From Squalus acanthias (taxonomy: Eukaryota): a stretch of DNA of 64,000 nt. Below the pieces are notes generated by a model, which saw only the letters and a list, made by a program, of their open reading frames with translations, did not search any database and was not told the origin of the DNA. Within the stretch, counting starts at the first letter, position 1. The number at the start of each line of letters is the position of its first letter. The DNA lies in contig CM059425.1 in the NCBI GenBank assembly GCA_030390025.1, positions 226,858,001 to 226,922,000 on the forward strand, in the 5' to 3' direction. Shown here piece by piece: positions 12,408 to 56,349 of the stretch. A program made the translations under genes and the position numbers.

Positions 12408-15400
12408 TACATAAGACGTAGGAGCAGGACTAGGTCATTTGGCCCCTCGAGCCTGCTCCGCCATTCAATAAGATCATGGCTGATCTGATCTTGGCCTCAA
12501 CTCCACTTCCCTGCCCGCTCCCCATAACCCTTGACTCCCTTATCGTTCAAAAATCTGTCTCTCTCCACCTTAAATATATTCAATGACCCAGCCACCACAG
12601 CTCTCTGGGGAAGAGAATTCCAAAGATTCATGACCCTCTGAGAGAAGAAATTCCTCCTCATTTCTGATTTAAAAGGGTTTCCCCCTTATTCTGAAATTAT
12701 ACCCCCTAGTTCTAGATTCCCCCACGAGGGGAAACATCCTCTCTGCATCTACCCTGTCAAGCCCCTTCAGAATCTTATATATTTCAATAAGATCCCCTCT
12801 CATTCTTCTAAACTCCAATGAGTATAGGCCTAACCTGCTCAATCTTTCTTCATAAGACAACCCCTTCATCTCTGGAATCAACCTCGCGACCCTTCTCTGA
12901 ACTGCCTCCAATGCAAGTATATCCTTCCTTAAATAAGGAGACCAAAACTGTACACAGTACTCCAGGTGTGGTCTCACCAGCGCCCTGTACAGTTGTAACA
13001 GGACTTCCCTACTTTTATACTCCATTCCCTTTACAATAAAGGCTAACATTCCATTTGCCTTCCTAATTACTTACTGTACCTTCATGCTAACTTTTTGTGA
13101 TTCATGTACAAGGACCCCCAGATCCCTCTGTACCTCTGCATTTTGTAATCTGTCCCCATTTAAATAATAATTTGCTTTTTTATTTTTCCTACCAAATTTG
13201 ACCTCGCATTTTCCCACATTAAATTCCATCTGCCGGATTTTTGCCCACTCACTTAGCCTATCTATATCCCTTTGGAGATTCTTTGCGTCCTCCACACAAT
13301 TTGCTTTCCCACCTATCTGTGCATCATCAGCAAACTTGGCTACATTACACTCAGTCCCTTCATCCAAGTCATTAATATAGATTGTAAATAGTTGAGGCCC
13401 CAGCACTGATCCCTGCGGCACTCCACTAGTTACAGTTTGCCAACCTGAAAATGACCCATTTATCCCGACTCTCTGTTTTCTGTTAGTTAGCCAATCCTCT
13501 ATCCATGCTAATATATTACCCCCACCCTGTGAGCTCTTATCTTGTGTAGTAACCTTTTATGTAGCACCTTATCGAATGCCTTCTGGAAATCCAAATACAC
13601 TACATCTACTGGTTCCCCTTTATCCACCCTGCTCGTTACATCCTCAAAGAACTCCAGCAAATTTGTCAAACATGATTTCCCTTTCATAAAACCATGCTGA
13701 CTCTGCTTGACTATATTATGATTTTCTAAATGTCCTGCTACCACTTCCTTAATGATAGACTCTAGCATTTTCCCAATGACAGATGTTAGGCTAACTGGTC
13801 TATAGTTGCCTGCTTTGTCTCCCTCCTTTCTTAAATAGGGGCGTTATATTTGCGGTTTTCCAGTCCGCTGGGATCTCTCCAGAATCCAGGGAATTTTGGT
13901 AGATTACAACCAATGCATCCACTATCTCTGCAGCCACCTCTTTTAAGACCCTAGGATGCAGGCCATCGGGTCCAGGGGACTTGTCCACCTTTAGTCCCAT
14001 TAGTTTGCCTAGTACTTTTTCTCTAGTGATAATGATTGTTTTAAATTCCCCCCCCCCCCCACCACCCCAATAGCCCCTTGATTATCCATTATTGGGATGC
14101 TTTTAGTGTCTTCTACCGTGAAGACCGATACAAAATATTTGTTCAAAGTCTCCGCCATTTCCCTGTTTCCCATTATTAATTCCCCAGACTCATCCTCTAG
14201 GGGACCAACGTTTACTTTAGCTACTTGCTTCCTTTTAATATACCTGTAGAAGCTCATACTGTCTGTTTTTATATTTCTTGCTAGCTGACTCTCATAAGCT
14301 ATCTTCTCTCTCTTTATCATTTTTTTAGTCATCCTTTGCTGGTTTTTTAAATTTTCCCAATCCTCTGGCCTTTCACTATTCTTCGCAGCATTGTATGCTT
14401 TTGTTTTCAATTTGATACCATCCTTTACTTCCTTAGTTAGCCATGGATGGTTCATCCTTCTCTTAAGGTCTTTCTTTCTCACTGGAATATATCTTTGCTG
14501 AGAGTTATGAAATATCTCCTTAAATGTTTGCCACTGCTTTTCTATAGTCTTATCCTGTAATATATTTTCCCAGTCCACTTTAACCAAGTCTGCCTTCATA
14601 CCTTTGTAATTACCTTTGTTTAAGTTCAGGACACTAGTTTGAGACCTAGCTTTCTCAACCTCAAAATGAATTTGAAATTCTACCATGCTATGATCACTCT
14701 TCCCAAGCGGATCCTTCACTTTGAGATCATTAATTAATCCAGCCTCGTTACACATTACCAGATCTAAAATAGTCTGCTCCCTGGTTGGTTCCACAACATA
14801 CTGTTCCAAGAAACCATCCTGCATACACTCTAAGAACTCTTCCTCAAGTCTACCTTTGCCAATTTACTTTGTCCAATCAATATGAAGATTAAAATCTCCC
14901 ATGATTATAGCCGTACCTTTCTTACAAGCCTCCTATTATTTCTTGATTTATACTCTGTCCTACAGTGTGGCTACTGTTTGAGGGCCTGTAGACACTCCCA
15001 CCAGTGACTTCTTACCCTTATTATTTCTTATCTCCACCCAAACTGATTCTACGTCTTGATCTTCTAGGCCAATATCATTTCTCATTACTGCACTGATCTC
15101 ATCCCTTATTAACAGAGCTACACCACCTCCTTTTCCTTTCTGCCTATCCTTACGAAATGGCAAATATCCCTGAATATTCAGTTCCCAGCCTTGGTCACCT
15201 CGCAACCACGTCTCTGTAATGGCTATCAGATCATACCCATTTATTTCTATTTGTGCTGTCAACTTATCTATCTTGTTACGAATGCTGCGTGCGTTCAGAT
15301 ATAGAGCTTTTAATTTTGTCTTTTTACCATTTTACCCTACTCTGACTCCCTCATTCTGATGCACTCTTATGTGTTTACGCTCTGTCCCTTCCTGTCACAC

Positions 15401-15960
15401 TCTGGTTATCATTACCCCTATCACTACCCTGCACTTTTGCCTTCTCATTTTTCTTTGACTTTTTAATTTCCGTTCAGCGTATCCCTCCCCCCCCCCCCAC
15501 TATTTAGTTTAAAGCCCTAGTTATTTGATTCGCCAGGACACTGGTCCCAGCCTGGTTCAAATGAAGCCCGTCCCGACGGAACAGCTCCTTCTTAGCCCAG
15601 TACTGGTGCCAGTGCCCCAGGAATCGAAACCCATTTCTCCCACACCAATCTTTGAGCCACTCGTTCATCTCTCTGATCTTATTTACCCTATGCCAATTTG
15701 CACGTGGCTCAGGTAGTAATCCAGAGATTATTACCTTTGTGGTTCTGCTTTTTAATTTAGCCCCTAGCTGCTCATACTCCCTCAGCAGAACCTCTTTCTT
15801 TGTCCTACCTATGTTGTTGGTACATACATGGACCACGACAACTGGATCTTTCCCCTCCCACTCTAAGTTCCTCTCCAGCCCAGAGGAGATGTCCTTTACC
15901 CTGGCACCGAGCGGGCAACACAGCCTTCGGGACTCACGCTGCAGAGAACAGTGTCTATAC
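12408..15960 (-). mobile_element. CR1 LINE with the SGNH-esterase end of ORF1 and a fragmented ORF2
   Basis: ORF1 VVVHVCTNNI...DGLHLN (15504-15962). Endonuclease AITETW; RT QHGFMKGKSCLTNL, QGSVLGPQLF and FADD. Confidence 0.93.
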
Positions 15961-15969
15961 ACAGTACAT

Positions 15970-16392
15970 TACCTAGGATTGTTCTCCTTAGAGCAGAGAA
16001 GGTTAAGGGCAAATTTAATAAAAGGTGTTCAAAATTAAGAGGGGTTTTGATTGAGTAAATGAGAAAATATTTCCACTAGCAGGAGGGTCGGTAACCAGAT
16101 GACACATAATTAAGATGATTGGCAAAAAATTCCAGGGGGGGGGAAGATGAGGACAACTTTTTTTTTTTTAAAACACATGTTATGATCTGGAATGCACTGC
16201 CTGAAAAAGTGGTAGAAGCAGATTCAATAATAACTTCAAAAGGGAATTGGAAATATACTTGAAAAGGAAAATTTGTAGGGCTATGGGGAAAGAGAAGGGG
16301 AGTGGGACTAATTGGATAGCTCAAAGAGTCAGTACAAGCACGATGGGTCGAATGGCCTCCTGCTGTGCTATACAATTCTAAGATTCTATGAT
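15970..16392 (+). mobile_element. CR1 3' end
   Basis: LGLFSLEQRRLR motif, 3' UTR and attcta-type tail. Confidence 0.8.
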
Positions 16393-16596
16393 TATTGCTG
16401 AACTACAACGCATTGGCTGTGGGTTCATTACTAGTCGAGTCCCAAAAAAGAGAGCTTTCAAATTCTCAATTGGTTGCATTTTCCAGAAGACCTTCTATGT
16501 TAAATGAAAATATTAAAATGTACATTAAATGGCAATGGGTAAGACAACATCTCACATTATACTAAACACTCAGCAGGCCCTTTCTTTCCTTGCTAG

Positions 16597-16651
16597 GTAT
16601 TTAGACACCCATTCGATCGCAGGAAGGAGATGGATTGTTGGCAATGAGTTG
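16597..16651 (+). CDS. Internal exon of an unidentified gene (xYLDTHSIAGRRWIVGNEL)
   Basis: Polypyrimidine tract tttctttccttgctag, perfect G|GTAAGT donor, 55 nt, phase 2 in and phase 0 out, open frame. Confidence 0.7.
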
Positions 16652-17029
16652 GTAAGTGATTTGCTGGATGCTGTCAGTCACCCTGATGGGAACTCACCCT
16701 TCTGAAAAAATTATATATATTTTTTTTTTTTACACTGCATTCCTATTTAATTCTAAAGTAATTTGCACTGATTCACAATGTCTTCCCCTGCTCAGGAAGG
16801 TGATCTAGCCTGGAGATGCCAACACAGAGACTTTCAATGTAGCTCTGCAGTTAGGCCACCTAAAGCAATCATTACCTGGGAGGGGAAGGCCTTTCTGGTC
16901 CCTTGGCTGATTATTTTGTCAATCATTGCCCTGAGCAACTTCGCTGGGACTGGCCAACCTGTGATAATCAGTGAAGACTGGGACTTGAATCTGGGAAAAG
17001 TCCAATCGCTGTTTACTGCAACTACTGTT

Positions 17030-17640
17030 CGACTCGTGTAAAAATATTAATCTCTTGGCATTTCTTTTCGGTTATTGAGTATTTAACTGTATTGTTCACA
17101 ATCTTTATTCGCTCTCTCCCACACCATGAGTAAGGGCAAGTAATCTGTTTTTTGGTCTCTGCTTATGCTGCAGTTGTGCCAGCTATTAGAGAAGTGTGAA
17201 GTGTGGGTTGACTCAGCTCAGCTTCATTTCCTTCCTCCCTGTGAGGATATGCCTCCCTAGGCGACTCGGCTGAGATTAGGAACTCAAGTGATGTTACTGC
17301 TCCCTTCCCTCAAGTATGCATGCGTACTACTGCTATTCTCTGGTTATTGTTCTCTCTACACGAGTGACCATGGCTTTCTGACGTAGCCTTCACTTACCTT
17401 TCTCTCTTCGATATTTATTACAGTACTACAGAGAGAGCTAATCACCCCTTAGACTCCCCTTCTACACCCAGACTAGCCGACACCATTCCTTTCTTACATC
17501 TTCCCACAGCCCTTTGCTGATTCCTGATTGTCGCAACACTCAGAGGCTGATGTCACTCTTATTAACCCCTACACCTACTACAGAGATAGTTTTGTATATA
17601 TATTTATTACCTATTTTACCTAGTTTGTCTTCTCTTATAG
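17030..17640 (-). mobile_element. Diverged LTR-like repeat related to 50166-50890
   Basis: Co-linear shared blocks (gcatgcgta, tacacgagtgacca, actccccttct..acccagacta, cactcagag, attaac, acctagt, tctta). The left boundary is uncertain. Confidence 0.6.
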
Positions 17641-17734
17641 CCGGTCATTCATATTTAGAGTTCTCTCAACAATTTAGGATTTTCTTGTATTGTTGCTTTA
17701 GAACTGTGGGTTTTCTTGTTCCCTTTTGGTACAG

Positions 17735-17837
17735 AAAATAACACCAGAGAAATATTCAACAGGATCCGCGAGCATCCCAGCAGCAGCATTTAAAATAAAG
17801 GGGAACACAAACAGCAGCGAACAAAAGATAAATGAAG
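17735..17837 (+). CDS. Internal exon of an unidentified gene (KITPEKYSTGSASIPAAAFKIKGNTNSSEQKINE)
   Basis: ttttcttgttcccttttggtacag acceptor, AAG|GTATGA donor, 103 nt, phase 0 in and phase 1 out, open frame. Confidence 0.72.
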
Positions 17838-18084
17838 GTATGAGGCAGAGACTCAGTGCGTTAAATGTCAATCTGTGAGGGCTGCACACTGCTCATTGGT
17901 TTATCACAGTCTCTGGTTTTCTGTACACTGCCTCGTTATTTTATGACTTTTATTCAGGAATTTAATCATAAAAGTCACACATATGGGATCGTAGAGAATA
18001 TCATATGGGCTGTGATGACCCCTGGAGATTTGTTTACTTCCTGATCTTCAGAAATGTGTCATGGAATCTTTTATGTGCATTCAT

Positions 18085-18485
18085 ATTGCAACTTTCACAA
18101 CCTCAGGATGTCCCAAAGTGCTTTGGTCAATTAGTATTTTGGAAGTGTAGTTACTGTTGTAATGTAGGAAAACATGGCATCTGATTAGTGCACATCCCAC
18201 AAATCCAAATAATCTGTTTTTAGTGATGTTGGTTGAGAGGCAAATATTGGCCAGGAGACTGGAGAGAATTCCCCTGCAATTCCTTTACAGTACAGTGGGA
18301 TCTTTTATGTCCATCTAAAAGGGCAGGCAAGGTCTTGGTTTAAAAGTTTCATCTGAAAGACTGCACTTCCGACAGTGTAGCACTCGCTCAGTACTGCAGT
18401 GGAGTGTCAGCCTAGATTATGGGATCAAGTCTCTTTAATAAAGCTTGACCCCACAACCTACTGACTTGGAGGCGAGAGTGCTACA
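18085..18485 (-). mobile_element. DeuSINE/SacSINE1-like SINE
   Basis: Reverse complement of the 51368 family. Confidence 0.78.
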
Positions 18486-19184
18486 AATGAGGGACTTGAA
18501 GATGAACCAATCCTCTAGGTCAGATGACATTATCCCAGGGTGCTGAAGGAGATGAGTAAAGAGATTGTCAGGGTAATGACTACAATCACCACTCACTGGA
18601 GGAGTTCCACAGTGTCTATGTTTGAAAAGTGTGACAAATCTTCAGTACCACATAAAATAATGGAAACCATTCAAAGGTCAAGTCAATGAACAAATATCTT
18701 ATTTTGTGAGGGTTACAAGGAGAAAATTCAGTGAGGCTATGCTCCTGGAGAAGAGTCATGTTAGACAGGAGTACGAGGCGGAGATAGATCTTGATTAACG
18801 AATCTCCGCTCCGGAACTGCAGCCTCACTAAATTTGCCATAAATATCTTTGTTTTTGGCTCATTACAAAAGTTGTGAATCAGCATTTGTTAATCTGCAAA
18901 CTCTAAAATGAAATGAACTTGATATACTGGGGACCGAATATTACACTACCACTTTAAGGTTTTATCAATTTCTGGATTAACCCAACAAAGCAAGCATGCT
19001 CGAGGTCACTGCTGTCTCACACAACTAACCTTTCTAAAAAGGAGTCATTACATTGACTGCAGTTTCTATGCCTGCTGATAATGATGATCCTATGTTGACT
19101 GAATGGGTGCAACAAGGGTTTAATATTAACTTCTGTGTTTACATCTGTTAACAGATAGTTGATCTTTTATTTTCTTTCACTTAG

Positions 19185-19306
19185 GTGAAAATTCCAATTG
19201 CCTTGAAGTCCAGGATAAAACTGGGTCAGTCAGTCGCCCCACAGCAGTGAACAAAAGCAGCTCCCAAAACAGACTCGAACACTCGTCTCTCTGCACAGTC
19301 CTGTAG
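19185..19306 (+). CDS. Terminal exon of an unidentified gene ending in CaaX (GENSNCLEVQDKTGSVSRPTAVNKSSSQNRLEHSSLCTVL*)
   Basis: cttttattttctttcacttag acceptor, phase 1 matches the previous exon, TAG at 19304-19306 directly after CTVL. ATTAAA at 19339-19344. Confidence 0.72.
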
Positions 19307-19804
19307 ACTGTTGGAGCCTCTTGGGTTAAGAGCCGAGCATTAAATGGTTTTCACTTCAACTCACTCCAGAGAAAAAAAACTGCTGGCATCTTTACGTGTT
19401 GATCAGATTTTAAAATGGTGGTTCTTATATGAACACGTTACACAACGGAAGCTCGGAGAACTGAGTGAACCTTGGCGCCTGGGATGACAGCTGTATTCAA
19501 TCCATTGCAGTATTTTATCAGCAAAAGGCAGTAATAGAACTATACACGTCAAATGGGACAATACAACACACACAATAGGAATATTCAACAGTGAATGAAT
19601 CCTAGATCGAATGATTTTTAGTTGAGGGCGATGGAGTCTGAGATGCCAAGAACAAGCTAGTGACAAACTATATCCAGCACATGGCCTACGTTGCAGGGGG
19701 CAGCCAAGGGGCATTCATAATATTGTTCTCACCTCTCTTCCTGTCTCTTTCTCTCTTTAGAGCTGGTCCGAAGTTTTCTCCTGCTTTCCCTCACTGGGCC
19801 TAAA

Positions 19805-19962
19805 GGGGTAGAAATTCACCTTGGGCAGTTGCGAATCGGCAGCCCATTATACACGCCAACCAATTCGTTTTCAATGGAAAAGGAAACCGGGTGGGACGTA
19901 AAATGGGCTGCTGACTCGCTATCACCCGTTTTCTGCTACCGCCCGAAACTAATTTCTATCCC
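19805..19962. mobile_element. Palindromic MITE, probably PIF/Harbinger
   Basis: TIRs GGGGTAGAAATT / AATTTCTATCCC, with internal inverted arms gcagcccatt / aatgggctgc. Confidence 0.7.
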
Positions 19963-20149
19963 GTAGTTTTAAGACTGGGATAGCCATGTCACCATACCAT
20001 TAGGGATGGGCAATAAATGCTAGCCTTGCCAGCGGCGCCCACATCCCAGGAACAAATTTAAAAAAATGTTGCTTCCCAGCGGGTGAAAGCAAACCAAATG
20101 GCGGAAGAACCTACAGAATTAGAACCTGTGAGGTTGGGGGTCACAGAAA

Positions 20150-20262
20150 GGGTTAGAACTAGAATTAGAGCCTACAGGGCTGGAGTTAGGATTAAAGTTA
20201 GGGTTAGGGCTGGAGTTAGAATTAGAACCTAGGGATAGGGTTAGAGGTAGAGTTAGGGTTAA
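20150..20262 (+). repeat. Degenerate TTAGGG/TTAGAA hexamer repeat
   Basis: ttagggttagggc, ttagaattagaa and ttagggtt units. Confidence 0.6.
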
Positions 20263-20609
20263 TTAACTTACCCACTGAGCAACTAAGGAATGAAATCCAG
20301 TGTTCATTGTACTTTAAACAAGAAAAAGTTACTAGTCTGTCAGGGGGAAAAAAGAAATGTTAAAATCTATTTATAAACAATTGAGTAAAACATCTTCAGT
20401 GAAACTCTCGAGAAACTAAAGGTCCAACTGGAACTGAGACCTCAATGGAATGCAGCACCTGTAGTTGGGTGTAATTTATTGGGTCTGTTGTAATAGCAGG
20501 TGGTGTTGTAAAAACATTCAAAGAGCAAAGAGACCTGCAATGATTCTATTTATACTCATCTGATGCCATTACTGCAACATGCTCTTCGTGGCAAGTTCAA
20601 TAAAAGGGA

Positions 20610-21052
20610 GAAAGAACTTGCATTTATTTAGCGCCTTTCACAACCTCAGGAGTCAGGACATCCCAAAGCACTTTACAGCCAATTAAGTACTTTTGAAGTG
20701 TAGTCACTGTTGTAATGTGGGGAAACGCAGCAGCCAATTTGTGTACAGCAAGATCCCACTAACAACAATGAGATAAATGACCAGATAATCTGTTTTTTGG
20801 TGTTGGTTGTGGGAAAAATGTTGGCCAGGACACCTCCCCAATCCTTCTTCGAATAGTATCATGGCATCTTTATCCACCTAAACAGGCAGCTCAGTTTAAC
20901 ATCACATCTGAAAGACGGCACCCCCAACAATGCAGCACTCCCTCAGTACTGCACTGAAGTGTCAGCCTACATTATTTACTCAAGACATCAGAGTGGGGCT
21001 TGAACCCACAGCATTTTAACTTAGTAGTGAAGAGTGCTACCACTGAGCCAAA
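20610..21052 (-). mobile_element. DeuSINE/SacSINE1-like SINE, near full length (further copies at about 21500-21900 -, 22550-22710 -, 23040-23400 +, 37955-38100 -, 44650-45040 -, 49250-49650 -, 63215-63575 +)
   Basis: tRNA-like head plus Deu-like domain and TAAATGCAAG tail. Confidence 0.8.
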
Positions 21053-23409
21053 CACATCTAGTTGGATATAATGGCCCAGATTTTGCGATAGGAATAATGG
21101 ATAGATGCCAAATCACCGTAATAGGTGCAAAACTATTGGAACAGGTGCCAGCCACACCACTGGGATAGTTGCCAAATCACCGGGATAGGTGCCACAACAC
21201 CATAACAAGTGGCAGCCACACCACTGGGATAGGTGCCAGGGCAGGCCAGACCAATGGGGCAGATACAAGACTAATGGGGGAGGTGCACTACCTCCAATAA
21301 GAACCAAATACAGCGACTCTCACTCAAGCAGCTCCCATCAGATGATTACAAAGCAGCAACGGCAAAGGCCTAGGACCAGTGCACCTCCAACCCACAGAAT
21401 GTGGTGAAATAAAAATGCAATTTAGAAATGGGAAATTCTGCAGAATGCATGCTGTACAATACTATACATACTCATTATACTATAAACTTTTAAAGACAGA
21501 CTTGTATTTATATAGCACCTTATCACATCTCTAAGAAACATTCGAAAGTGCTTCACAGCTAATGAATTACTTCTGAAGTTCAATCACTGTTGTTATGTCA
21601 ACAAATGCAGCAGTCAAAGAGGAAGATCTACAAGTAGCAAATGAGATGAATACCCTTCTATTCTGTTTTTCTTGATGTTGGTTAAGGGAGGAATGTTCGC
21701 CAGGACACTGCGTGAACCCCCTATTTTATTTCAAAATTGCACCACAAAGATCTTGTTTTCCACCCGAACAGGTAGACAAGGTCTCGGTTTCGGTTTGACG
21801 TCTCACCCAACAGACAGCACCTCTAACAGTGCAGCACTCCGAGTACGGTACTGGCATGTCAACCCATATTATGAGCTCAAGTCCTGGAGTGAGATTTGTC
21901 CCCACCACCAAAGGTGCTACCAAATAAACCAAACTGACACTCAATGATCAACACAGAAAAAGACTGCGCTTCCCAAACATACAGCAAAGGCCAGAATCAT
22001 TTTAATTTCTTGCCTATGCAATTAACATAAAAGACGTTAAGAGATAAATACTCCCAATTCTAACTTGCTACAACCTCATCACCAGTGATGTCTTGGCAGG
22101 GACACTGCAGCTTGTTTAGAAGTAGCTTTAGTGTACATCACTGGTTCACAACATACTGAGCTGGCTCAAATCTTCTCTCGGTCTTTCCCCCAGCAAAAAT
22201 AAGTTTAATTGGCATATTCAAATATCATCTAGTCCGAGTAATTAGCTCATTGTTTTTAACCAGTATATAGTAAATTATGGACGAGTGATCTTAAGATGGT
22301 GAAAGAATATAGATAATATGTTGGTGGCATATGCAATGAGTGGGGATTTGCTGGAAGCATTCAAAGGAAAGCTGGACGAGTTCTTGAGAGAGGCAAACGT
22401 GTTGCTTGAGGCTTTCTTTGGAACTGCTGCATATATTATAATACATCAATGGTTACACGGTGTCCTTTCTTACAACATGAATGTTTGCTGTAGAGTGGAA
22501 AATGGACCGTTGCCAGTGATGATGGATTACTGCATACTAAACATTAAGAAAGACTTGCATTTATATAGTGCCATTCACAACTTCAAGACGCCCCAAAGCA
22601 CTTTATAGCCAATGAAGTACTTTTGAAATTGTCACTGTTGTAGATGTCTTGTCTAGATGTTATGCTCAAGTCACTGGAGTGGGACTTGACCCACAACCTT
22701 ATGACTCAGGCAACTGATTTTGAAATCCATGAGCTGCTCACGAGCAGAATCAGATTAAACTGTTGACTGTTAATGGTCAGTTGCAGAGCAGGCAGTGGAA
22801 CCAGTGCTGGCTCTAAATCTGGAGAAAGCATATTACAGATTACAGTTACTGCCTCTCAGGTGGGGAGATCCCATTGTGGACACAGCTCCTCTGATAAATC
22901 CAAGAAATTTATCCTTTGCTTGTAGAGCAGTGGCCTGGCCTCAGCTGCATCAAACCTGCTCCAAATCACAGTTACACCATTTTGCAAAATAGAAATTGTA
23001 AAAAAAATTGGCTTATTCAAATGGCCTCTAATCCCCATAATTGACTTGAGCACAAAATCCAGTACTGAGGGAATGCTGCACTGTCTTTCGGATGAGACGT
23101 TAAACCGAGGCCCCGTCTGCTCTCAGGTGGACGTAAAAGATCCACTGCCACTCTTTCGAAGAGCAGGGGACTTTTCCCAGTGTCTTGGTCATTATTTACC
23201 CCTCAACCAACATCACAAACAGATTATCTAGTCAGTATCACTTTGCTGTTCGTGGGACCTTGTTGTGCAAAATTGGCTGCTGCATATCCTACATTACAAC
23301 AATGACTGCACTTCTAAAGTACTTCATTGGCTGTAAAGTGCTTTGTGATGTCCGGAGGTCGTGAAAGATGCTAAATAAATGCAAGTCTGTCTTTCTTTCT
23401 GCCTAAGGT

Positions 23410-24880
23410 CTCCTCCAGATCCTCCATCCTCCCCAATCACCCCCAACTGTAGCTGACCTCTTAACATTTTTCGACCCCAACCCTCATCAGATTTATCTCC
23501 TCCACAAAGACCAAACTTAATTGACCCCTTAACTAATTCAGTTCCTAACTATTCAACTGCACCCCCCTTCCACTCAGCCCAATGCTTGCTTTTATCTTCA
23601 ATTACTCCCTCTCTTGAAAAATCACCTCATTCCTTAAAGAGCCTGCCTTTGAATCCTTCATACTCTGCAACTACTGAACTATCTCAAATCTCGCTCAGGC
23701 TCTGGAATTATGTCACCATAATCCAAATTCATAGCTACGCCCACTTCTCCCTGTTAAAATCCATTCAGTCTGGCTTCCAACCTGGTCAGGGTTCCATCAA
23801 CATTGTATTACTGTGACTGCGGCGGATGCCTTATCCCTCCTCAACCTCTCTCTTTTATTGACATGGTTGACCACATCATCTCATCTGGCACCTCTCCTCT
23901 TTGCTCCACCTCTTAGTTATTACCCTTACACAGTTCCATCCCTACTGGAGCCAGCAGCCAGCACATCTCCTGCAATGGCTTCTCCTCCCATGTCTCTTTG
24001 ACCCCTCCAATTCTTCCTCTGTATGCTAACCCCAACGGCCCCAAGCAAAATTATCCGTGAGTATGGGAGTCAGCTTCTATATGCATATTGAAAATAACCA
24101 GCTTTACTTCACCAGCACCAACCTTGACTAGTTTTGTTGTCTGAAATCAAGTCATGGAGGAGCCACAACATTCTGCAGTGCATCACTGTTAGGACAGAAG
24201 CCATCGTGTTCAGCCCCCACCTGATTCCAATCCCTGCTTGTATTCCCACTTAAACGCTAACCTCAGCATGCAACCTCAATGTCCTTATGATTAACTTCAA
24301 ACTCCACATCCAATCCATCACAAAGACTTCTTACTTCCACCTCCAAAATATTCTGTCTCCATCCCCAATTCACCTCTACTACTGCTGAAACCTTCATTCA
24401 TATCTTGATCACCTGCGGACACTTTCCCAATACGCTCCTCCTGAGCTCCACCCTACAGAAACTGCAACTCATCCAGAACTCCAATACCTGCATCATATTC
24501 TGCATAGTCACACTCCAGTATCACCCTCTCCTTACCAACTTCCAATAGTTTTCCATTTCTCAGAGCAAGTTCATGATCCTCACTTTTATTTGTAAATCTC
24601 TCCATGGCTTTGTTCCTCTCTTATCTCTAAACACACCCCTGCTCGCACCTTTCAACTCTAGTCCACTGTGTGCTCCCCTATCTCACTCCTACATTGTGGA
24701 ACTACCTTCCTAAACCCCTCCACTTTGCTTCATCGTGCCTCACCTTCAAAAGCCTCCCTAAAACCTACCTCCAAGTCCAACTTCAGGAACCTCACCAGTT
24801 CCCCTACTACTCTAGTCTTTTCTCCTGAAGCGTGATGCAACTTGGACCTTTTTGCTACATTAAAGGCCCTGTGTAAACCC
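23410..24880 (+). mobile_element. Old L2 LINE relic
   Basis: C/T-rich. Remnants of QSGF and KLQLIQNS, and an L2-like 3' UTR. Confidence 0.65.
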
Positions 24881-24889
24881 ACGTTGCAA

Positions 24890-25450
24890 ATGTGATTGGT
24901 CTGTTGCTGAAAGTCGATTATAGCAGCATCACACAGTCGAACATACGGGTGACTGATGCCCTGAACGGAGGGCCACAAGTTTATCCACTATTCATTCCCA
25001 AAGTACCGGGAGTGGTCAACTTACCCTCAACTTATATACAGGCACTGGCACACAGTCAGATAATATACATCAATAGAAAGGGCATTTATTCCCTCAGCTT
25101 GCAAGGGAGGGGCAATGCTTGAAAATTCATCCTTCAGGGGAAATATGCTAGGTCAATGCAGGACTATTTTATCCTTAACCAAACCACAACAGATTGGCTA
25201 TGAAAAGGTAGTTATAACAAGTACTGACATGAGAAAAATTTAAATAGGGTCAGGATGGGGCTTGGTACTTGACAAGGGGCATCTCCTCCTTGGGGCAGTC
25301 ACTTTGGAGTTGAGGTGACTCCAAGACAACAATTCTGGCAGGGGCAGTTCAAAACCTATCCAACACTCTATGGTAGATTCAGTAATTTGATACCTGACCC
25401 AGGCAAGTTCATAGTAGAGCACTGGGCGACCAGCCTAGCTCACTAGTAGA
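24890..25450 (+). pseudogene. Highly degraded PIF/Harbinger (DDE_Tnp_4) transposase relic
   Basis: FIPKVPGVVN...YINRKGIYSLSLQ, YARSMQDYFIL and LVLDKGH, in the order expected for GFP.V.G.ID / NRKG.HS / YPGS.HD / GDKGY. Confidence 0.6.
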
Positions 25451-26262
25451 ACATGGAGGGGTAGGACTATCACAGGGTGCAGAGATTCTTCCTATTCTGC
25501 TCTTGGTTGCCCTACGAGTCAACGCCCTATCAGGTAAGGTGCTCCTAGCAGGACAAGCAACAGGAAGCTTACCAGAGCTTTGCATTGGTGAACTGCATGG
25601 TTAAACTTCAGCAGGAACCCTGTGCATAGTTGGGACTCAGCCAGCCTGCAACCTAAGCTCTCTGGATTTGGGTAGGTGGACTGTGTTCCCACACTCTGTA
25701 TTGGGCAAACAAATTCTACCAGTGTAGGTTTCTCAGTAGCTTCATGTGTATCAGGTACCCAGCTGACCAAAAAAAAGGGATAGTGAGCAATAGCACCTGA
25801 CCAAAATTAAGCCCATAAAAGGAAAAGTACTCATGGATATTGTTCCTATTGGACCATGAAGAACTGCAAATTCCACCCCCGCACCCTCCAAATTGATCTC
25901 TTATAACCCTGCACATCTGCAGTGTCTCTGAACTGTGCAAAAATATACATTATTCTAAGCACCATGGATTATTTTGCCAGTTTGCATTGGTCCAAAAATG
26001 ACATTCCATGAAACACTAGTAGGTGATGAGAGGAGCTCAGTCCTGCTTGGGTTGTCCCGACAAAAATTTCTGACAACAGTACAATGTTACAAGGTTAAGC
26101 TCCAGCCAGTCACACCAGAAGAGCTGGTGGCAGATGAGAACCACCATTTTATATCAGCTATCCGGTTCTTTATAACTACCGAATATGAAAAGTGTTCACC
26201 AGAGGCCGAAGTAAAGTACACACAGTGAGTTAAAAAAAAAAGTGTTGTTTTAAAAATGAGCC

Positions 26263-26268
26263 TTTAAT
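26263..26268 (-). terminator. Candidate ERI1 polyadenylation signal (ATTAAA)
   Basis: Minus-strand ATTAAA followed by T-rich and GT-rich sequence, about 1.5 kb past the stop, at the end of a repeat-free UTR-like stretch. Other sites are possible. Confidence 0.35.
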
Positions 26269-27750
26269 TAACAAAACCAAACAAAGGCACTGAACAGGTG
26301 TAACAAGTTCTAATCTATTCAAACTTTCACATGGAGAAATGAGTCAACATTAAAGGGTAAATTCTGCACTCCCAGCAGGGAGGCATGCTTAGACAGTGTG
26401 GATTGGAGAAACAGTGCTACAGTGTTGTTGTGCGCCTTATCTCTGACCCTGCTCCCTTTGTGTATGGCTCTCTTTGAGAATGAGGAATAGCTGAATTTAC
26501 CTTTATAGTTAATGCAGCTAACGCAGGCACAAGTGAAGTGATTTGCATTTGCAGCACAGTGCAGACTCTCTCCTGTGAGCTTCTGCTCTCAGACACGATA
26601 ACTGAAGGACGGGAAAGGTCGAAAGGCGTGTCAACCTACACTGCTCTTGTGCAAGTGCGGAGTGGCTTTGTCACAGGAAATTTACTCGCTTTTTCAGTCA
26701 GTCAGTGGAGATCTATAGAAGTTGGGTAAAATATTAAAATGTGGCAAAGGATGTGTGAAGGAAAAATAAATATTAAGTGTGCGAGTAATAAAAAACGTAA
26801 ACTAATATCTAAAGCATCTTTAGTCTAAATCTCTCCAACACTTGCAGTATTAATGTGCCAGTCAGGTGTACATGTTCAAACAATTGGCATAAAATTGTAT
26901 CAAAGATTTTAGGATATAATTTATACCAGAAGCATTCAATTTGTAGCAAACAAAGTGTATTACAGGTGTGGGAGAGAAGAGAGTATGTTCCTTTGTGGCG
27001 GGGAGTAAGCAAAATGACCATGCAATGTGCAGGTTGCCGTCACATCTTTGATAGAGATGGTTACCACATTGAAGCTTTCTGTCCCATTAAACTGACCAAA
27101 TCCCACAAGGTTGGGCCGTATAGTATTTTGGTAAATTGGCCACAACTATGCTGGGGTCATCTGCCCAATGCGAGGCGAACAAGAATACCCCTGTTCAAGA
27201 TAAAACTCAATACTGCGTAAAACTGGTACCTGACTTCCTTTAGGTTATAGAGACTTCTTGTGGCATAAGGATGCGCGAGTCAAACTGTTCACTAAGGGAC
27301 ACAAAGTGTTTTTCTTTAAAAAAAAAATCACATAAGCATTTGATTAAAGGTCCCAGTTTCACATTATTTTCAACAACTCCAGAGATGCAAAAAGGCAAAG
27401 CTGGGCTATTCTATAACAATGCTTTTGTAGGGTTTTTTTTAAACTAAAAAACCCCACAGATGTGTGGTTCAAAAGGATTAAGCTGAACTTGGCCAATTCT
27501 CACCTTCCCCCACCTTCCAGCATTTAACACTGTATAGTAAGCATTATAGCACAAGTTGGAAGAAAACAGGCAATCTTGTGACTCAGAATTGAAAAATACA
27601 GCACAAAATCCTGCTGGTGCTCCTGAACGAGACAATTTCTAAAAAAACAACGAAGTTTTGCAGCTGCCAGCAAATAGTCAGAATGCCGTGCTCCCTCAAA
27701 CCAACTGGAGCTCACTGGAATCCAGTTCGCCCCCAGGATTCTGTTGGTGC

Positions 27751-27993
27751 CTAGATTTTCTGCCATGGTGAATAGGGAGGAGGAGCACTCTCCAGTGGGG
27801 AGGTATTGGGCACGTTCATCAGCTGCCCTGCATGCAGCCGCTCGTTGACTCGCAGCTCACATCCATCCTGGAGCATCCGTATAGCAATCCGAGCAATATT
27901 TCGGGAATCATCCAGCCCGGAGTGAGGTCGGCCTTCGTACTTCATTCCGAGCTTTTCCAGCATGGAAGTGAGTTTGGTCTGAGTCCTGGGAAC
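27751..27993 (-). CDS. ERI1: ERI1 last coding exon (VPRTQTKLTSMLEKLGMKYEGRPHSGLDDSRNIARI...PWQKI*)
   Basis: ctgcag|GTT acceptor, H-x4-D motif III (HSGLDD), TAG stop. The seven exons total 1038 nt, i.e. 345 aa plus stop. Confidence 0.97.
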   Translation of the reverse strand, partial: VPRTQTKLTSMLEKLGMKYEGRPHSGLDDSRNIARIAIRMLQDGCELRVNERLHAGQLMNVPNTSPLESAPPPYSPWQKI

Positions 27994-28899
27994 CTGCAGG
28001 CAGATGGTCACAGCGTCTGTCAAAACCAGGACAAGTTAAACGGCCAAAAACAAATTTGTACAAAATGAAGCCCAGACCAGGGTCGCTCAAACTTGACCAA
28101 GTGTCTGTTGGGGGAAATGATGCAGTTGAGGTCAAGTAGAATTGTTTTGTGGAATCAAACCAAATGCTTGAAAAATGTAACCCGCAAGAATGAGTTGTGT
28201 AGCAACAATCAGCCCAACTCAGTGTAATGTGACAGGAGCACTTTATGCACAAACAGCACTGAGGTATGTTAAAGTCTGAGATTGCAAAATACGAAGTTTG
28301 TTTGCTGGAAGCTTGTGCAATGCTTCAAAAAGTTGATTAAAACCCATGGATAGTTGCTAGATTTCAACAAACATTGCGGCGACAGCATCAACCCGACTAT
28401 TAAGGCATTTTCGAAATGTGTCAACTACATAGATTATCTGTAATAAAACATCTTGCTGGTAATAAGTGACCCACAATAATATGGGACTGCCAGAATTTTA
28501 TTCTGTTTCAGAGCAGCACTCTGCCAGCAAGATCAGCCGATATGCTTTCTCACTACTTCCTACATAGCTGTGGGTGAGAGAGAGTGAGGGAAGTGGTGAG
28601 AAAACACTGGACCCACACACTGAACCTCATGAAACATCGATTGGCCTTGGAGGGGGTACAGTGTAGATTCACCAGAATAATACAAGGGCTACAAGGTGAT
28701 CTAATCAAGGTTTTTAAAATGATAAAGGGATTCTACAGGGTAGATACAGATAAACTATTTCCTTTGGTGGGGGAAATAGAGAACAAGGGGACACAATCTT
28801 AAAATTAGTGCTCTAGGCCATTCACAAGTGAAATCAGGAAGCACTATTTTAACACAAAGGGTAGTGAAAATCTGAAATTCCCATCCCCAAAACTAGAAG

Positions 28900-40528: not shown

Positions 40529-41157
40529 NNNNNNNNNNNNNNNNNNNNNNNNNNNNNNNNNNNNNNNNNNNNNNNNNNNNNNNNNNNNNNNNNNNNNNNN
40601 NNNNNNNNNNNNNNNNNNNNNNNNNNNNNNNNNNNNNNNNNNNNNNNNNNNNNNNNNNNNNNNNNNNNNNNNNNNNNNNNNNNNNNNNNNNNNNNNNNNN
40701 NNNNNNNNNNNNNNNNNNNNNNNNNNNNNNNNNNNNNNNNNNNNNNNNNNNNNNNNNNNNNNNNNNNNNNNNNNNNNNNNNNNNNNNNNNNNNNNNNNNN
40801 NNNNNNNNNNNNNNNNNNNNNNNNNNNNNNNNNNNNNNNNNNNNNNNNNNNNNNNNNNNNNNNNNNNNNNNNNNNNNNNNNNNNNNNNNNNNNNNNNNNN
40901 NNNNNNNNNNNNNNNNNNNNNNNNNNNNNNNNNNNNNNNNNNNNNNNNNNNNNNNNNNNNNNNNNNNNNNNNNNNNNNNNNNNNNNNNNNNNNNNNNNNN
41001 NNNNNNNNNNNNNNNNNNNNNNNNNNNNNNNNNNNNNNNNNNNNNNNNNNNNNNNNNNNNNNNNNNNNNNNNNNNNNNNNNNNNNNNNNNNNNNNNNNNN
41101 NNNNNNNNNNNNNNNNNNNNNNNNNNNNNNNNNNNNNNNNNNNNNNNNNNNNNNNNN
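40529..41157. other. Assembly gap (629 N) in ERI1 intron 1
   Basis: Run of N. Confidence 1.
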
Positions 41158-44372: not shown

Positions 44373-45077
44373 AGTAAAAGGTTGAAATATCTTTGAAATG
44401 TACTAACCTAGCTACCAGAGTTCCCCTCCCCCCACTTTAAAAACTGTGGACTCATCATAAATGGACAATATCAGTTGTGGCTCAATGATGGCACTCTTGC
44501 CTCTCCATCAGAAGGTTGTCGGTTAAAGTCCCACTTCAGGGACTGGAGCACATAATCCAGGCTGACCCACCAGTGCAGTACTGCAAGTTCTTTCTTTAAT
44601 AACAAACTCCCCATTGTGATGTAAGAAATTAGGTGCTAATTAAAAAGAAAGAACTCGCAGTTATATAGCATATTTCACAACATCAGGACGTCCCAAAGCA
44701 CTTTACTACTAATCAAGTACTTTTGAAGTGCCATTGTTGTAATGTAGGAAACACGGCAGCCAATTTACGCACAGCAATGTCCCACAAACAGCAATGAGAT
44801 AAATTACTAGATAATCTGTTTTAAGTGTTGGTTGAGGGATAAACGTTGGCCAGGACACTGGGGAGAACTCCGCTGCTCTTCTTCAACTGGTGACGTGAGA
44901 TCTTTTGTGTCTGCCAGAGAGGGCAGACAGGGGTCTCTGTTTAATGTTTCATCCGAAAGGCAGCAGCTCAGACGGTGCAGTACTGAGAGAGTGCTGCCTG
45001 GATTATGCGCTGGAGTCTCGGGAGCGGGACTTGAATTATAATTTAGGAGGGGGGGGGCGTCTCCGCATCTAAAGAGG

Positions 45078-46892
45078 AGAGGGGGATGTCTCCACATTTG
45101 AAGGGCAAGGGGGATGTCTCCACATTTGAAGGGGAAGGGGGATGGGGGATGTCTCCACATTTGAAGGGGAGGGGGGATGTCTCCACATTTGAAGGGGAGG
45201 GGGGATGTCTCCACATTTGAAGGGGAGGGGGATGTCTCCACATTTGAAGGGGAGGGGGGATGTCTCCACATTTGAAGGGGAGGGGGATGTCTCCACATTT
45301 GAAGGGGAGGGGGGATGTCTCCACATTTGAAGGGGGGGGGGGATGTCTCCACATTTGAAGGGAGGGGGGATGTCTCCACATTTGAAGGGGAGGGGGGATG
45401 TCTCCACATTTGATGGGGAGGGGGAATGTCTCCACATTTGATGGGGAGGGGGAATGTCTCCACATTTGATGGGGAGGGGGGATGTCTCCACATTTGAAGT
45501 GAGGGGGAATGTCTCCACATTTGAAGGGGAAGGGGGATGTCTCCACATTTGAAGGGGAGGGGGATGTCTCCACATTTGATGGGGAGGGGGGATGTCTCCA
45601 CATTTGAAGGGGGGGGGGATGTCTCCACATTTGAAGGGGAGGGGGGATGTCTCCACATTTGATGGGGAGGGGGGATGTCTCCACATTTGAAGGGGGGGAA
45701 TGTCTCCACATTTGAAGGGGAGGGGGATGTCTCCACATTTGATGGGGGGGGGATGTCTCCACATTTGAAGGGGGGGATGTCTCCACATTTGATGGGGGGG
45801 GGGATGTCTCCACATTTGAAGGGGAGGGGGAATGTCTCCACATTTGAAGGGGGGGGATGTCTCCACATTTGATGGGGGGGGGGATGTCTCCACATTTGAA
45901 GGGGAGGGGGAATGTCTCCACATTTGAAGGGGGGGGGATGTCTCCATATTTGATGGGGGGGGGGATGTCTCCACATTTGAAGGGGAGGGGGGATGTCTCC
46001 ACATTTGATGGGGAGGGGGGATGTCTCCACATTTGATGGGGAGGGGGGATGTCTCCACATTTGAAGGGGAGGGGGAATGTCTCCACATTTGAAGGGGGGG
46101 GATGTCCCCACATTTGATGGGGGGGGGGGATGTCTCCACATTTGATGGGGAGGGGGGATGTCTCCACATTTGATGGGGAGGGGGGATGTCTCCACATTTG
46201 AAGGGAGGGGGGATGTCTCCACATTTGATGGGGAGGGGGGATGTCTCCACATTTGAAGGGGAGGGGGATGTCTCCACATTTGATGGGGAGGGGGGATGTC
46301 GCCACATTTGAAGGAGAGGGGGAATGTCTCCACATTTGATGGGGAGGGGGGATGTCTCCACATTTGATGGGGAGGGGGGATGTCTCCACATTTGATGGGG
46401 AGGGGGGATGTCTCCACATTTGAAGGGCAAGGGGGATGTCTCCACATTTGAAGGGCAAGGGGGATGTCTCCACATTTGAAGGGGAGGGGGGATGTCTCCA
46501 CATTTGAAGGGGGGGGGATGTCTCCACATTTGATGGGGAGGGGGGATGTCTCCACATTTGATGGGGAAGGGGGATGTCTCCACATTTGAAGGGGGGGGAT
46601 GTCTCCACATTTGATGGGGAGGGGGATGTCTCCATATTTGATGGGGAAGGGGGATGTCTCCACATTTGAAGGGGAGGGGGATGTCTCCACATTTGATGGG
46701 GAGGGGGGATGTCTCCACATTTGAAGGGGAGGGGGATGTCTCCATATTTGATGGGGAAGGGGGATGTCTCCACATTTGATGAGAAGTCGCACAACACCAG
46801 GTTATAGTCCAACAGTTTTATTTGAAATCACAAGCTTTCGGAGCTGCTGGGGGATGTCTCCACATTTGAAGGGGAGGGGGGATATCTCCACT
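45078..46892. repeat. G-rich minisatellite, unit about 23-27 bp GGGGATGTCTCCACATTTGA(A/T)GGGGAG, roughly 65-70 copies
   Basis: Near-invariant ATGTCTCCACATTTGA core with variable G-runs. Confidence 0.97.
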
Positions 46893-47200: not shown

Positions 47201-47244
47201 AGAGCGGGGCAACGACAGGAGGACAGATTGGCAATAGTGTGTGG

Positions 47245-47985
47245 AGAGATTGAGAGAGTATGGAGAGGGATCGAGAGAGGAATGGAGTGATTGAGAGAAT
47301 CTGGAGAGATGGAGGGAGAGATTGAGAGAATCTGGAGAGGGAGGGAAAGATTGAGAGAATCTGGAGAGATGGAGGGAAAGATTGAGAGAATCTGGAGAGA
47401 GATTGAGAGAATCTGGAGAGAGGGGGAGAGATTGAGAGAATCTGGAGAGAGGGAGAGATTGAGAGAGTCTGGAGAGATTGAGAGAATCTGGAGAGGGGGA
47501 GATTGAGAGAGTCTGGAGAGGGAGGGAGCGATTGAGAGTCTGGAGAAGGAGGGGTGGAGAGGGAGAGGGAGGGGCAGAGATTGAGCGAGGGTGGAGAGGG
47601 AGGGGCAGAGATTGAGAGAGTCTGGAGAGGGAGGGGCAGAGATTGAGAGAGTCTGGAGAGGGAGGGCAGAGATTGAGAGTGTCTGGAGAGGGAGGGGCAG
47701 AGATTGAGAGTGTCTGGAGAGGGAGGGGCAGAGATTGAGAGAGTCTGGAGAGGGAGGGCAGAGATTGAGAGTGTCTGGAGAGGGAGGGCAGAGATTGAGA
47801 GTGTCTGGAGAGGGAGGGGCAGAGATTGAGAGTGTCTGGAGAGGGAGGGCAGAGATTGAGAGTGTCTGGAGAGGGAGGGCAGAGATTGAGAGTGTCTGGA
47901 GAGGGAGGGGCAGAGATTGAGAGTGTCTGGAGAGGGAGGGGCAGAGATTGAGAGTGTCTGGAGAGGGAGGGGCAGAATTTTGAGT
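47245..47985. repeat. Purine-rich minisatellite, unit about 20-30 bp GAGATTGAGAG(A/T)(A/G)TCTGGAGAGGGAGGG(G)CA; degenerate units continue to about 48730
   Basis: Directly visible tandem units upstream of ERI1 exon 1. Confidence 0.95.
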
Positions 47986-50165
47986 GGAGGGGCAGATTGG
48001 GAGAGGAGGTGTTTGGAGAAGGGGTGGCGATTGGGAGCAACTAAGGGGGAGGGGGAAATTCTACAGGGGACAAGAAGAGATGGGAAGGGACAACAACAAG
48101 TGGGAGATACTGGGGGGAAGAATCTATACAGATTGAGAGAATCTGGAAAGGGAGAGGTAGAGATGCCACAGTCTGGATGGGGAGGGGCAGGCAGTGCAGT
48201 GGAAAAGATTGGCAGAGTCTGGGTGGGGAGGGGCAGACAGGGCAGTGGAAGAGATTGGCAAACTCTGGGTGGGGAGGGGCAGAGTCTAGAGGGGGAGGCA
48301 TGGGCAGAGAATTCATGTTGGCGCTCTCTAATCTCTCAAATTTCTCCCAAGTGCTCAGTCAGTTTGTCCTTAATTATAGATTCCAATAACTTTGCCGCAG
48401 CAGATGTTAGACTAACATCTATAACTTCCTGGTTTCTCTCTCTCTCACCTTTCTTAAATAATGGAGTTACATTTGTTTGGGAGATTCTGAAGAAGGGTCA
48501 GATTCGGAGTCTGAAGGAGATGGGGCAGAGACATAGCCTGGTGAGGGAGGGGAAGAGACAGGGCAGAGTCTGGAGGGGGGTGGGGGGGGGGATGAGAGTT
48601 TAAGAGAGTCTAAGGAAGGGGCAGAAATAGAGCAGATTCTGGAGAGGAAGGGGCAGAGATCAGGAGAGTATATGGGTAGTGGCAGAGTCTGGAGTGGAAG
48701 GTGCAGAAACCGGGCAGAGTCTGTAGACAGCCTACAACACAGACCCATCCCCACCCTCAAGTAACATTGTCCATTTAACTATAGTATAGCTAACTACTAT
48801 TCCAGTAGCACCCTACAATAGCCAACTAATTGGATCCAACTCAGGCAGAGGAGCAAAAGGAATGCATGTATGAAACCACATCAGAGACACACCACATGAA
48901 TTCACAAGACTAAAGGATTAAAGGTGATACAGCGCTGACATAACACTCGCATCGTTATACATACTCCTTTACAAGATCAGAGATAGGGATTTTTAGATAA
49001 ATTAGCATTTTGCACTCTTCCAAGAGATTAAATCACAGCGATGTGACTTCAAGCTGATCTGCCAAATCTTAACTATATCTGTACTGGAGTTTTCATACAC
49101 CAATACCTTTAATTTTGTGGGTTATTAAAATCAGAAATTACAAAAATTATCAATCTATTCTGTCCAAAATGGAAGATTAGGGTTTGGATCATGTATGTGC
49201 TTTATGGGGTAATGATTATGTACAACCCACTTTTTTAAAAAACAAGAAAGAAAAACTTGCATTTATACAGCCCCTTTCATGACCTCGGGATGTCCCAAAG
49301 CACTTTACGGTCAATGAAGTACTTTGGAAGTGTAGTCACTGTTGTAATGTAGGAAATGCTACAGCCAATTTGCGCAGGGAAAGCTCCCACAGACAGCAAT
49401 GAGATAATGACCATATAATCTGTTTTTTGGCGTTGGTTGATGGATAAATATTGGCCAGAATACTGGGCAAACTCCCTTGCTCTTTTTCAAATAGTGCCAT
49501 GGGGTCTTTTATGTCCACCTGAGAGAACAGATGGGGTATTGGTTTAACGTCTCAACTGAAAGACAGCACCTCCGACAGTGTAGTACTCCCTCAGTACTGC
49601 AATGAATTGTCAGCCTAAATTATGTCCCCAAATCTCTGGAGTGGGCACATGTATTGATAATTCTGTACTAATTCTTCAAAGATTGCAATCTCCAAACTCC
49701 AATATAGTTCCGTTGGGAAGACCTTAGTAGACAGGTTTTAATTTTGGAGAAAGGCTCGAAAATTCAGCAATTTATTCACTGGAACAGAAAAGTTTAAGTG
49801 GGATCAAACACGATATTCAAGATTATGGGAGATTTTGAGAAGATAAATAGTGGAAAAAATTGTCTCCAGTTGTTGGGAAATCGATAACAAGGGAGCAGAG
49901 ACTCAGGATTATCACTAGAGGAACAAGGGAAATTTAGAAGAAATGTATTCACTCGGAAATGTATTCACTTATTAGAACATGGATTGCCTTACCACACGCA
50001 GCTTTTGAAGAAGAGACTATCATTTATAACGGAACTGGATAATTATTTGAAAAGGAGAGCTATTGAAGGTTCTGAGGAAATGGCAGTGAAATGGGACGGG
50101 GGTTGATTGCTGCAGTTGAAGAGTGCTGTGATGGGACGAATGGCCTTCTGTGTTGTAATTTCTAT

Positions 50166-50890
50166 TGTTGGGTTTAAAGGACAGTCATTCATCATTTCCC
50201 TAATACCAGTTCAAGGACCAGGAAACATTAAGATGTCTGATTAATACCTTTTATTGATTAATACGTTGATATAACCCATTACATGCAGTGCCCATGAGAT
50301 TGGTACCGATAAATACTCCTGAGCAACGGACTCTTCGGATTCCGTAAATGTGTCATCTTGATTACTTACGTTCATCTTAGCAGACTAGGTAAAAGTCTCT
50401 CAGGGGCTCCGGTGTGCTGTATCTTTATAGGGTTAACTACGTCTCACTAGCGTGACGTTACTATGCAAGCACGTTTCATCTACTTGCAGTTAATGCGTGG
50501 TGTTGCCTTATACGTCATCACACCAAGTGATGTTTCTACTTTCCCCCCAAGCGCGCATGCGTATAACTACTATTCTCTGTTCATTATTCACTGTACACGA
50601 GTGACCACGGCTGTCAGGCATCCCCTTCATTTACTTATCTCCTTTCTTTTTTTTATAACAGAGAAATCTATTCATCCCTGACACTCCCCTTCTTAACCCA
50701 GACTATCTGGCAACATTCCTGCTCGTTAATATTTCTTTCTTACACCTCCCCCCCGCCCAGTCTGGTATTGATCCTGCTTGTCTCAGCACTCAGAGACTGT
50801 ATCCTTCTCATTAACTCTTACAATACAAGAGTTAGTTCATTTTTTATATATATGTGTGTGGCTATTCTACCTAGTATATCTATTCTTACA
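50166..50890 (-). mobile_element. Solo LTR
   Basis: TG...CA termini (tgttgg...cttaca). Perfect 5-bp TSD TCTAT (50161-50165 / 50891-50895). Minus-strand TATAAA at about 50424-50429 and AATAAA at 50250-50255. Inserted in a CR1 tail. Confidence 0.8.
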
Positions 50891-51790: not shown

Positions 51791-51800
51791 TAGAGGCACT

Positions 51801-56142: not shown

Positions 56143-56349
56143 TTTCTATTTTCTATTTTCTATTAATGAAACACTGTAGAATGAATTAGTGCATGATAGC
56201 ATGTTCTTCTGATAAAGATGCCACAAAGGGCTGCAGTGGTAGCAGTCTTGCCTGTGAGTCAGAAGGTCGTGGGTTCAAGTCCCATACTGGAGATTTGACG
56301 TTAAGCCGAGGCTCCATTTGCCCTCTTGGATGGACATAAAAGACCCTTT

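Follow-up and report, generated by a model that had tools for sequence, protein, structure and literature searches.

The plus-strand exons lying between 16597 and 19306 of the window, by which we mean the whole stretch of 64,000 nucleotides of Squalus acanthias DNA analysed here, belong to a real spliced gene and form the 3' portion of a small gene of jawed vertebrates that is apparently single-copy, already present in databases as automatic models and undescribed as a named family or in papers (open-licence full texts). Its product ends in a CaaX tail predicted to be a geranylgeranylation site. Judging from its relatives, the whole protein may be a geranylgeranylated polypeptide of about 135 aa that is carried by PDE6D to the ciliary membrane, where a head of 41-43 aa would regulate a partner, a tentative reading that we place just short of evenly balanced.

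The earlier note, made from the letters alone, had drawn three short exons with GT-AG sites on the plus strand and had chained them in frame; coordinates, splice sites and the resulting 92-aa peptide all proved correct. The features that we refer to are as follows (X followed by a number denotes a sequencing run; tail positions are counted from the CaaX Cys).

16597..16651, plus strand: internal coding exon of 55 nt, AG before and GT after, with a tblastn match and a contig junction to 17735
16652..17734, plus strand: GT-AG intron, phase 0, spliced out in contigs of X4, X6 and X7
17735..17837, plus strand: coding exon of 103 nt for the disordered linker, AG before and GT after, covered by contigs and tblastn
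17838..19184, plus strand: GT-AG intron, phase 1, spliced out in contigs of four of four runs
19185..19306, plus strand: last coding exon of 122 nt, AG before, with the remaining linker, the tail and the stop codon (19304-19306)
19283..19303, plus strand: tail motif S-S-L-C-T-V-L, with the Ser at -3 (19283-19285), the CaaX Cys (19292-19294) and the terminal Leu
19307..20030, plus strand: 3' UTR, end approximate, AATAAA at 20012, contigs reaching 19763 (X4) and 20028 (X1, X3)
27751..27996, minus strand: last coding exon of the neighbour ERI1, stop codon 27751-27753, 5' edge approximate

Once joined, the three exons read through in a single frame that ends in SLCTVL and a stop. Their polypyrimidine tracts are strong, as had been claimed: the acceptors, with 13-14 pyrimidines per 16 nt, are among the best 1-3% of AG sites on the plus strand, and the donors fit the consensus at seven of nine positions, placing them in the best 4% of GT sites. 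CaaL-like endings close 15 of the 3391 stop-ended frames of the window, two of them with a Ser at -3. The exon at 16597 codes only for the end of the head helix and the start of the linker, its first base finishing the Arg codon of the S-Y-L-Q-R-Y-L helix found in the family. At the other end of the gene the 3' UTR overlaps a repeat, and contigs may end there for that reason.

Seven sequencing runs (X1, X2, X3, X4, X6, X7, X14), presumed to be RNA and none of them recorded as such, were searched for transcripts. Both junctions that the earlier note had predicted were found: 17837>19185 is present in contigs of four of four runs (X1, X3, X4, X7; three studies), and 16651>17735 in three of seven (X4, X6, X7; two studies), contigs of X1, X2, X3 and X14 not showing the latter. 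The last exon with its UTR has 77-88% of its words in six runs, again presumed RNA; X14, which shares its study with X4 and X6, contains almost none of these words and is uninformative on tissue pattern. Outside repeats, the majority of intron bins show no coverage, which fits what is expected of RNA. We regard transcription and splicing of the three exons as virtually certain.

Some contigs depart from the simple three-exon pattern. One from X1 retains the last 51 nt of the intron before 17735 while being spliced to 19185, small contigs from X1 and X2 (both of study P1) lie inside that intron (window 17162-17734), and exon 16597 is uncovered in X1 and X3. Since the frame in the retained stretch before 17735 is without a Met, the X1 and X2 contigs look like partly spliced RNA; those at 17162-17734 may reflect slow splicing or a non-coding form that starts in the intron. 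In X7, a run from another species, the five listed coding-exon differences all change a residue (11 differences in total, on a single contig with depth 4.2), consistent with a linker that drifts freely. Both X1 and X4 carry a 5-nt insertion relative to the window at 19542, in the 3' UTR.

When the last exon alone was used in a word-index protein search, it returned a single match, the 133-aa protein chiPu_0008237 of the bamboo shark Chiloscyllium punctatum (GCC29795.1, P0001 here; E 1.5e-9). The exons are conserved there, all three matching P0001 with tblastn identities of 52%, 65% and 78%; over the window peptide 59 of 92 columns are identical, including the last 12 residues without exception. 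With P0001 as phmmer query against 1.84 billion representative proteins, 15 matches were obtained at E of 0.001 or below, namely the query itself, one repeat protein and 13 proteins with the head of the query. The repeat protein (P0002, 1355 aa, E 4e-22) has neither head nor tail and was dropped as a member. The family so defined consists of 14 clusters at 50% identity, all with the same head, and spans sharks, sturgeon, teleosts, coelacanth, frogs, turtle and snake. Its named members come from Latimeria (LOC135360345), Acipenser, Conger (COCON_G00151180), Umbra (UPYG_G00181340), Coryphaenoides, Xenopus (X. tropicalis XENTR_v10001092), Discoglossus, Lithobates (LOC143974644), Ranitomeya (LOC143768604), Mauremys (LOC120406456) and Protobothrops (LOC107285625), all labelled 'uncharacterized' or 'hypothetical', and two clusters are without a name. 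By sequence comparison and by the head tree, the annotated models from shark to snake are orthologues of the window gene. The idea that the gene might be restricted to one lineage is thus at odds with relatives found by phmmer across jawed vertebrates, while the suspicion that it is uncharacterised holds, as no name, family or paper was found: open-licence full texts searched by ten member identifiers, two motifs, the locus and the family type gave nothing relevant.

In a tree of the head, each named species contributes a single member, and teleosts, frogs and reptiles form groups that agree with species phylogeny; support is moderate and no branch passes both support bars. None of the names attached to the 14 clusters belongs to a bird, a mammal, a jawless fish or an invertebrate, in a single-sequence search of limited reach against representatives that hide members; this suggests gene loss, short of proving it. 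For the unnamed members, the complete frame fits on contigs 1.2-1.5 kb in length, which makes them likely to be spliced mRNAs. Counts given below refer to 13 complete members (P0001, P0003-P0013, P0018), with P0016 and P0017 excluded as near-copies; left out of the tail counts are P0014, which is without a CaaX, and the fragment P0015, whose complete cluster mate is P0018. At 70 aa, P0014 does carry the head; it may be a faulty model or may indicate that the tail can be lost. The RefSeq models from turtle and snake (P0007, P0018) carry extensions of 58 and 76 residues ahead of the invariant Met; since all other members begin at that Met, these are likely upstream in-frame AUGs chosen by annotation.

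The head itself is very probably encoded by an exon upstream of the window that is spliced onto 16597. A head profile run on the six frames of the window scores -0.2 bits at best versus 78-92 for family members, and among the joints listed none leads into 16597 from inside the window. A 509-nt contig of X4 has 293 nt 5' of 16595 that the listed joints place nowhere in the window, which is room for the 128 nt of the head plus UTR, and its match runs 2 nt beyond the acceptor of exon 16597, in keeping with an upstream exon whose final AG would form the Arg codon together with the first base of 16597. From this unplaced 5' sequence, combined with the lack of a head in the window, the first intron is likely to exceed 16 kb and the protein to be of about 135 aa. 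That head and exons go together in sharks is seen in P0001, which carries the head joined to these very exons. The snake fragment P0015 ends at the residue where exon 16597 starts, which points to an intron shared with the window gene.

Complete members are 117-207 aa long and are built from head, linker and tail. The head (41-43 aa) has a mean identity of 66% (range 51-84) over the 78 pairs of the 13 members, with residues 1-6, Gly9, Gly14, Asp16, Trp21 and Pro23 invariant and a second conserved block, S-Y-L-x-R-Y-L. Over the same pairs the linker, 64-156 aa in length, is 24% identical versus 20% for shuffles, and its FoldIndex is negative in all 13 members, so that it is predicted to be disordered. 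The disordered linker of the earlier note is borne out by these figures; the folded part that was said to precede it is not, as two AlphaFold2 runs on 14 sequences gave no fold (pTM 0.21 and 0.23, by a method that could miss a small fold) and the conserved part is a head lying mostly outside the window. The models show one short helix, starting at residue 40. Neither a hydrophobic 19-mer above 0.70 nor a conserved second Cys occurs in the 13 members. Pfam and NCBIfam hold no family common to two members, PDB chains gave no match at E up to 10 beyond a weak partial one to ribosomal protein bS16, the ESM Atlas returned nothing usable and Rfam has no match within window 15000-28000. The bS16 match covers the second half only (E 0.011-0.16), comes with neither a Pfam S16 match nor a predicted fold, and is taken as chance. 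Protein phosphatase PP1 (RVxF), tankyrase and eIF4E each have a defined docking motif, and comparing these by eye with the alignment columns we found that the basic or hydrophobic residue each one needs is not conserved.

At the C-terminus, the family tail reads [K/R]-S-[S/K]-x-C-x-aliphatic-L/F in the 13 complete members, which are related by descent, so that a count of 13 of 13 does not stand for 13 independent events. The CaaX Cys is fourth from the true C-terminus in the window protein and in all 13 relatives; the a2 position is always aliphatic (Leu in seven, Val in three, Ile in three; Val in the window) and X is Leu in 12 and Phe in one (Leu in the window). What the earlier note overlooked is a Ser at -3, which is present in the window protein and in 13 of 13 relatives against a Ser background of 0.15. 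Position -4 is Lys or Arg and position -2 is Ser in 11 of 13 members each, whereas -1 varies, being Leu in the window and Leu, Val, Ile or Phe in six members, Thr in five and Ala in two. Plasma-membrane CaaX tails of the K-Ras4B type have about six basic residues beside the Cys; the window protein has two Lys/Arg in the 15 residues before it, and its relatives 1-7, scattered over 20 residues. A CaaX of the GGTase-I type had been proposed, and the spliced last exon with its stop and its conservation in 13 of 13 complete relatives uphold this. In PMC9857354, X = Leu, Phe or Ile specifies geranylgeranyl. By the established CaaX rule, GGTase-I would very likely geranylgeranylate the Cys, after which the last three residues would be clipped and the Cys methylated; since all 13 members have such a CaaX, the whole family is predicted to carry a geranylgeranyl anchor.

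It is the Ser at -3, in combination with the Leu at -1 of the shark tail, that leads us to read the protein as PDE6D cargo, likely delivered to the ciliary membrane. According to PMC5512577, a Ser at -3 bonds Glu88 of PDE6D; paired with a hydrophobic -1 residue it increases affinity about 100-fold and directs cargo into cilia, and such high-affinity cargo is released only by ARL3, inside cilia; the affinities there were measured with farnesylated rather than geranylgeranylated peptides. PMC9857354 reports a -3 Ser in seven geranylgeranylated PDE6D interactors, and the rule is restated in PMC12703448. PMC9857354 also finds this Ser in only 12 of 25 prenylated PDE6D interactors, notes that FAM219A has it yet was not observed inside cilia, and describes Ser-to-Lys mutants of NIM1K and UBL3 that still reached cilia. 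Also speaking against this reading, no more than six of the 13 members have a large hydrophobic -1, and the Ser at -2, though conserved, plays no role in the rule. In the Umbra member, the six residues up to the Cys equal the PDE6C peptide printed in PMC3690454. On the strength of these parallels we think it rather probable that, in this species, -3 Ser and -1 Leu would confer high PDE6D affinity and make the protein PDE6D cargo, whereas release by ARL3-GTP inside the cilium and residence there are possible at slightly less than an even chance. Photoreceptor outer segment, sensory cilium and sperm tail would be the candidate cilia.

The conserved head and the drifting linker suggest a docking motif on a spacer. 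Too short and too poorly predicted for a free-standing domain, the head would fold on a partner instead, and sequence conservation makes it likely that it is a disordered motif which does so with a partner on the same membrane and works as an adaptor or an inhibitor, the linker being no more than a spacer.

The main rival to a ciliary cargo, and in our judgement an unlikely one, keeps the docking head and the geranylgeranyl anchor and sees the protein as a tether at the plasma membrane or endomembranes outside the cilium, whose membrane binding a kinase would shut off by acting on the basic-Ser-Ser stretch of the tail, for instance via 14-3-3. The residues at -4 (Lys/Arg, 11 of 13), -3 (Ser, 13 of 13) and -2 (Ser, 11 of 13) do resemble an AGC-kinase site, the terminal exon is present in runs from at least six samples, and 14-3-3 is described in PMC3690454 as pulling phosphorylated, prenylated proteins off membranes. 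However, the 14-3-3 motif given in PMC3690454 for Rnd3, Rap1A and PDE6C, [RK]-X-K-[ST]-C-X3, demands Lys at -2 and Ser or Thr at -1; it is absent from the window protein and occurs in one of 13 members (Umbra). A tether to the plasma membrane is further opposed by the missing polybasic patch. The head could alternatively be a small fold or self-assembly module forming a dimer, an oligomer or a coat on membranes, which would make the protein a structural spacer between two membranes or between membrane and axoneme. That it is Gly-rich and strand-like with an invariant Trp and Pro, that its helix is moderately amphipathic (hydrophobic moment 0.15-0.56) and that its FoldIndex is about zero or slightly positive would suit such a module; but the two AlphaFold2 runs show neither strands nor a fold, and a structural spacer should hold its length, which a linker of such variable extent does not, making this option improbable.

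Less probable still, indeed decidedly so, is that the N-terminal Met-Pro-Ile-Ser-Ser-Gly mainly serves as a Pro/N-degron and the protein as a short-lived membrane signal or decoy, its abundance controlled by the GID/CTLH ligase. GID4 reads an N-terminal Pro, which becomes exposed once the Met ahead of it has been cleaved off, and the six residues, invariant in 13 of 13 members, begin the protein in 11 of 13 models. Such a degron takes up four residues, however, whereas conservation reaches residue 25 and resumes in the helix at about 39-45, and the turtle and snake models have in-frame upstream extensions. As for doubts over the gene itself, we consider it barely credible, and largely refuted, that the exons are either an alternatively used 3' terminus of some larger, known gene or part of a non-coding RNA whose CaaX arose by chance. 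One may argue for this from the 5' exon not found in the window and from the study P1 runs, in which exon 16597 lacks coverage and one contig begins 51 nt inside the intron; yet 13 complete short proteins share head and tail, and 209 candidates include no relative of 234-2000 aa (a weak point), and frame, splice sites and tail are conserved in the bamboo shark. Our preferred reading stays that of a prenylated ciliary cargo with a docking head, at the reserve expressed above.

How does such a protein compare with known systems? A CaaX with Ser at -3 is shared with INPP5E and GRK1 (PMC5512577), with NIM1K, UBL3 and FAM219A (PMC9857354) and with the PDE6C and RPGR tails (PMC3690454); Leu stands at -1 of the window protein, and its X = Leu is as in geranylgeranylated PDE6D cargo. 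In known PDE6D cargoes, however, the tail is appended to an enzyme or a folded protein that has no sequence relation to the window protein beyond the last few residues, whereas the window protein shows no catalytic or folded domain and is a short motif on a disordered leash. In overall design, it resembles small disordered regulators held at membranes. Complexin 3/4, paralemmin and the PDE6 gamma subunit combine a short conserved binding segment with a low-complexity body, and complexin 3/4 and paralemmin also have a CaaX anchor. The likeness is one of design only: the window protein has no match to any of these in Pfam or, at E up to 10, among PDB chains.

As had been proposed, the gene is convergent with ERI1, which matches the minus strand (E 2e-35 to human ERI1; E 1e-19 in another search) with its stop 8.4 kb from that of the window gene and a likely start codon, placed by eye, near 47032 (minus strand). 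PPP1R3B, which we take to be the mammalian neighbour of ERI1 and which is named together with it in literature on human 8p23.1, has a similar convergent position; the earlier note rightly set the gene apart from PPP1R3B, as the window protein has neither CBM21 nor any other Pfam domain (no Pfam family is common to members), is half as long and ends in a CaaX tail. A 28-bp G-rich tandem array of about 63 copies (90% match) occupies 45051-46781, barely within what is likely to be intron 1 of ERI1; immediately upstream of ERI1, 47242-47976 holds 31-bp purine-rich arrays, and ERI1 itself contains a 629-nt run of N at 40529-41157. MFHAS1 is presumably the head-to-head neighbour of ERI1 in mammals, and among the frames listed for 47400-64000, a stretch made up mostly of LINE remnants, none is long and MFHAS1-like. 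Further along, a 29-codon frame on the minus strand (57368-57454) resembles a signal peptide and ends at a good donor site, possibly by chance, and adjoins a transposase-like remnant (57922-58897), presumably of Harbinger type, for which terminal inverted repeats were sought and none found.

Conserved vertebrate genes without a name, domain or paper are now uncommon, and the design of this one, an invariant motif for which no match is known, followed by a spacer and by a lipid tail that bears a signature for sorting to cilia, is simple and testable in Xenopus, where the orthologue is annotated. Were the protein ciliary, it would represent a new type of PDE6D cargo without an enzyme domain, plus a new binding motif. 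At its boldest, the proposal sees an undescribed jawed-vertebrate 'motif on a leash' family which PDE6D would sort to the sensory cilium or outer segment, where a 43-residue motif would control a signalling enzyme or channel, and which would have been kept for more than 400 million years and lost in mammals and perhaps birds; in this full form we find it rather doubtful. If the absence from mammals holds, the gene may point to a role in sensing or reproduction that has disappeared from mammals.
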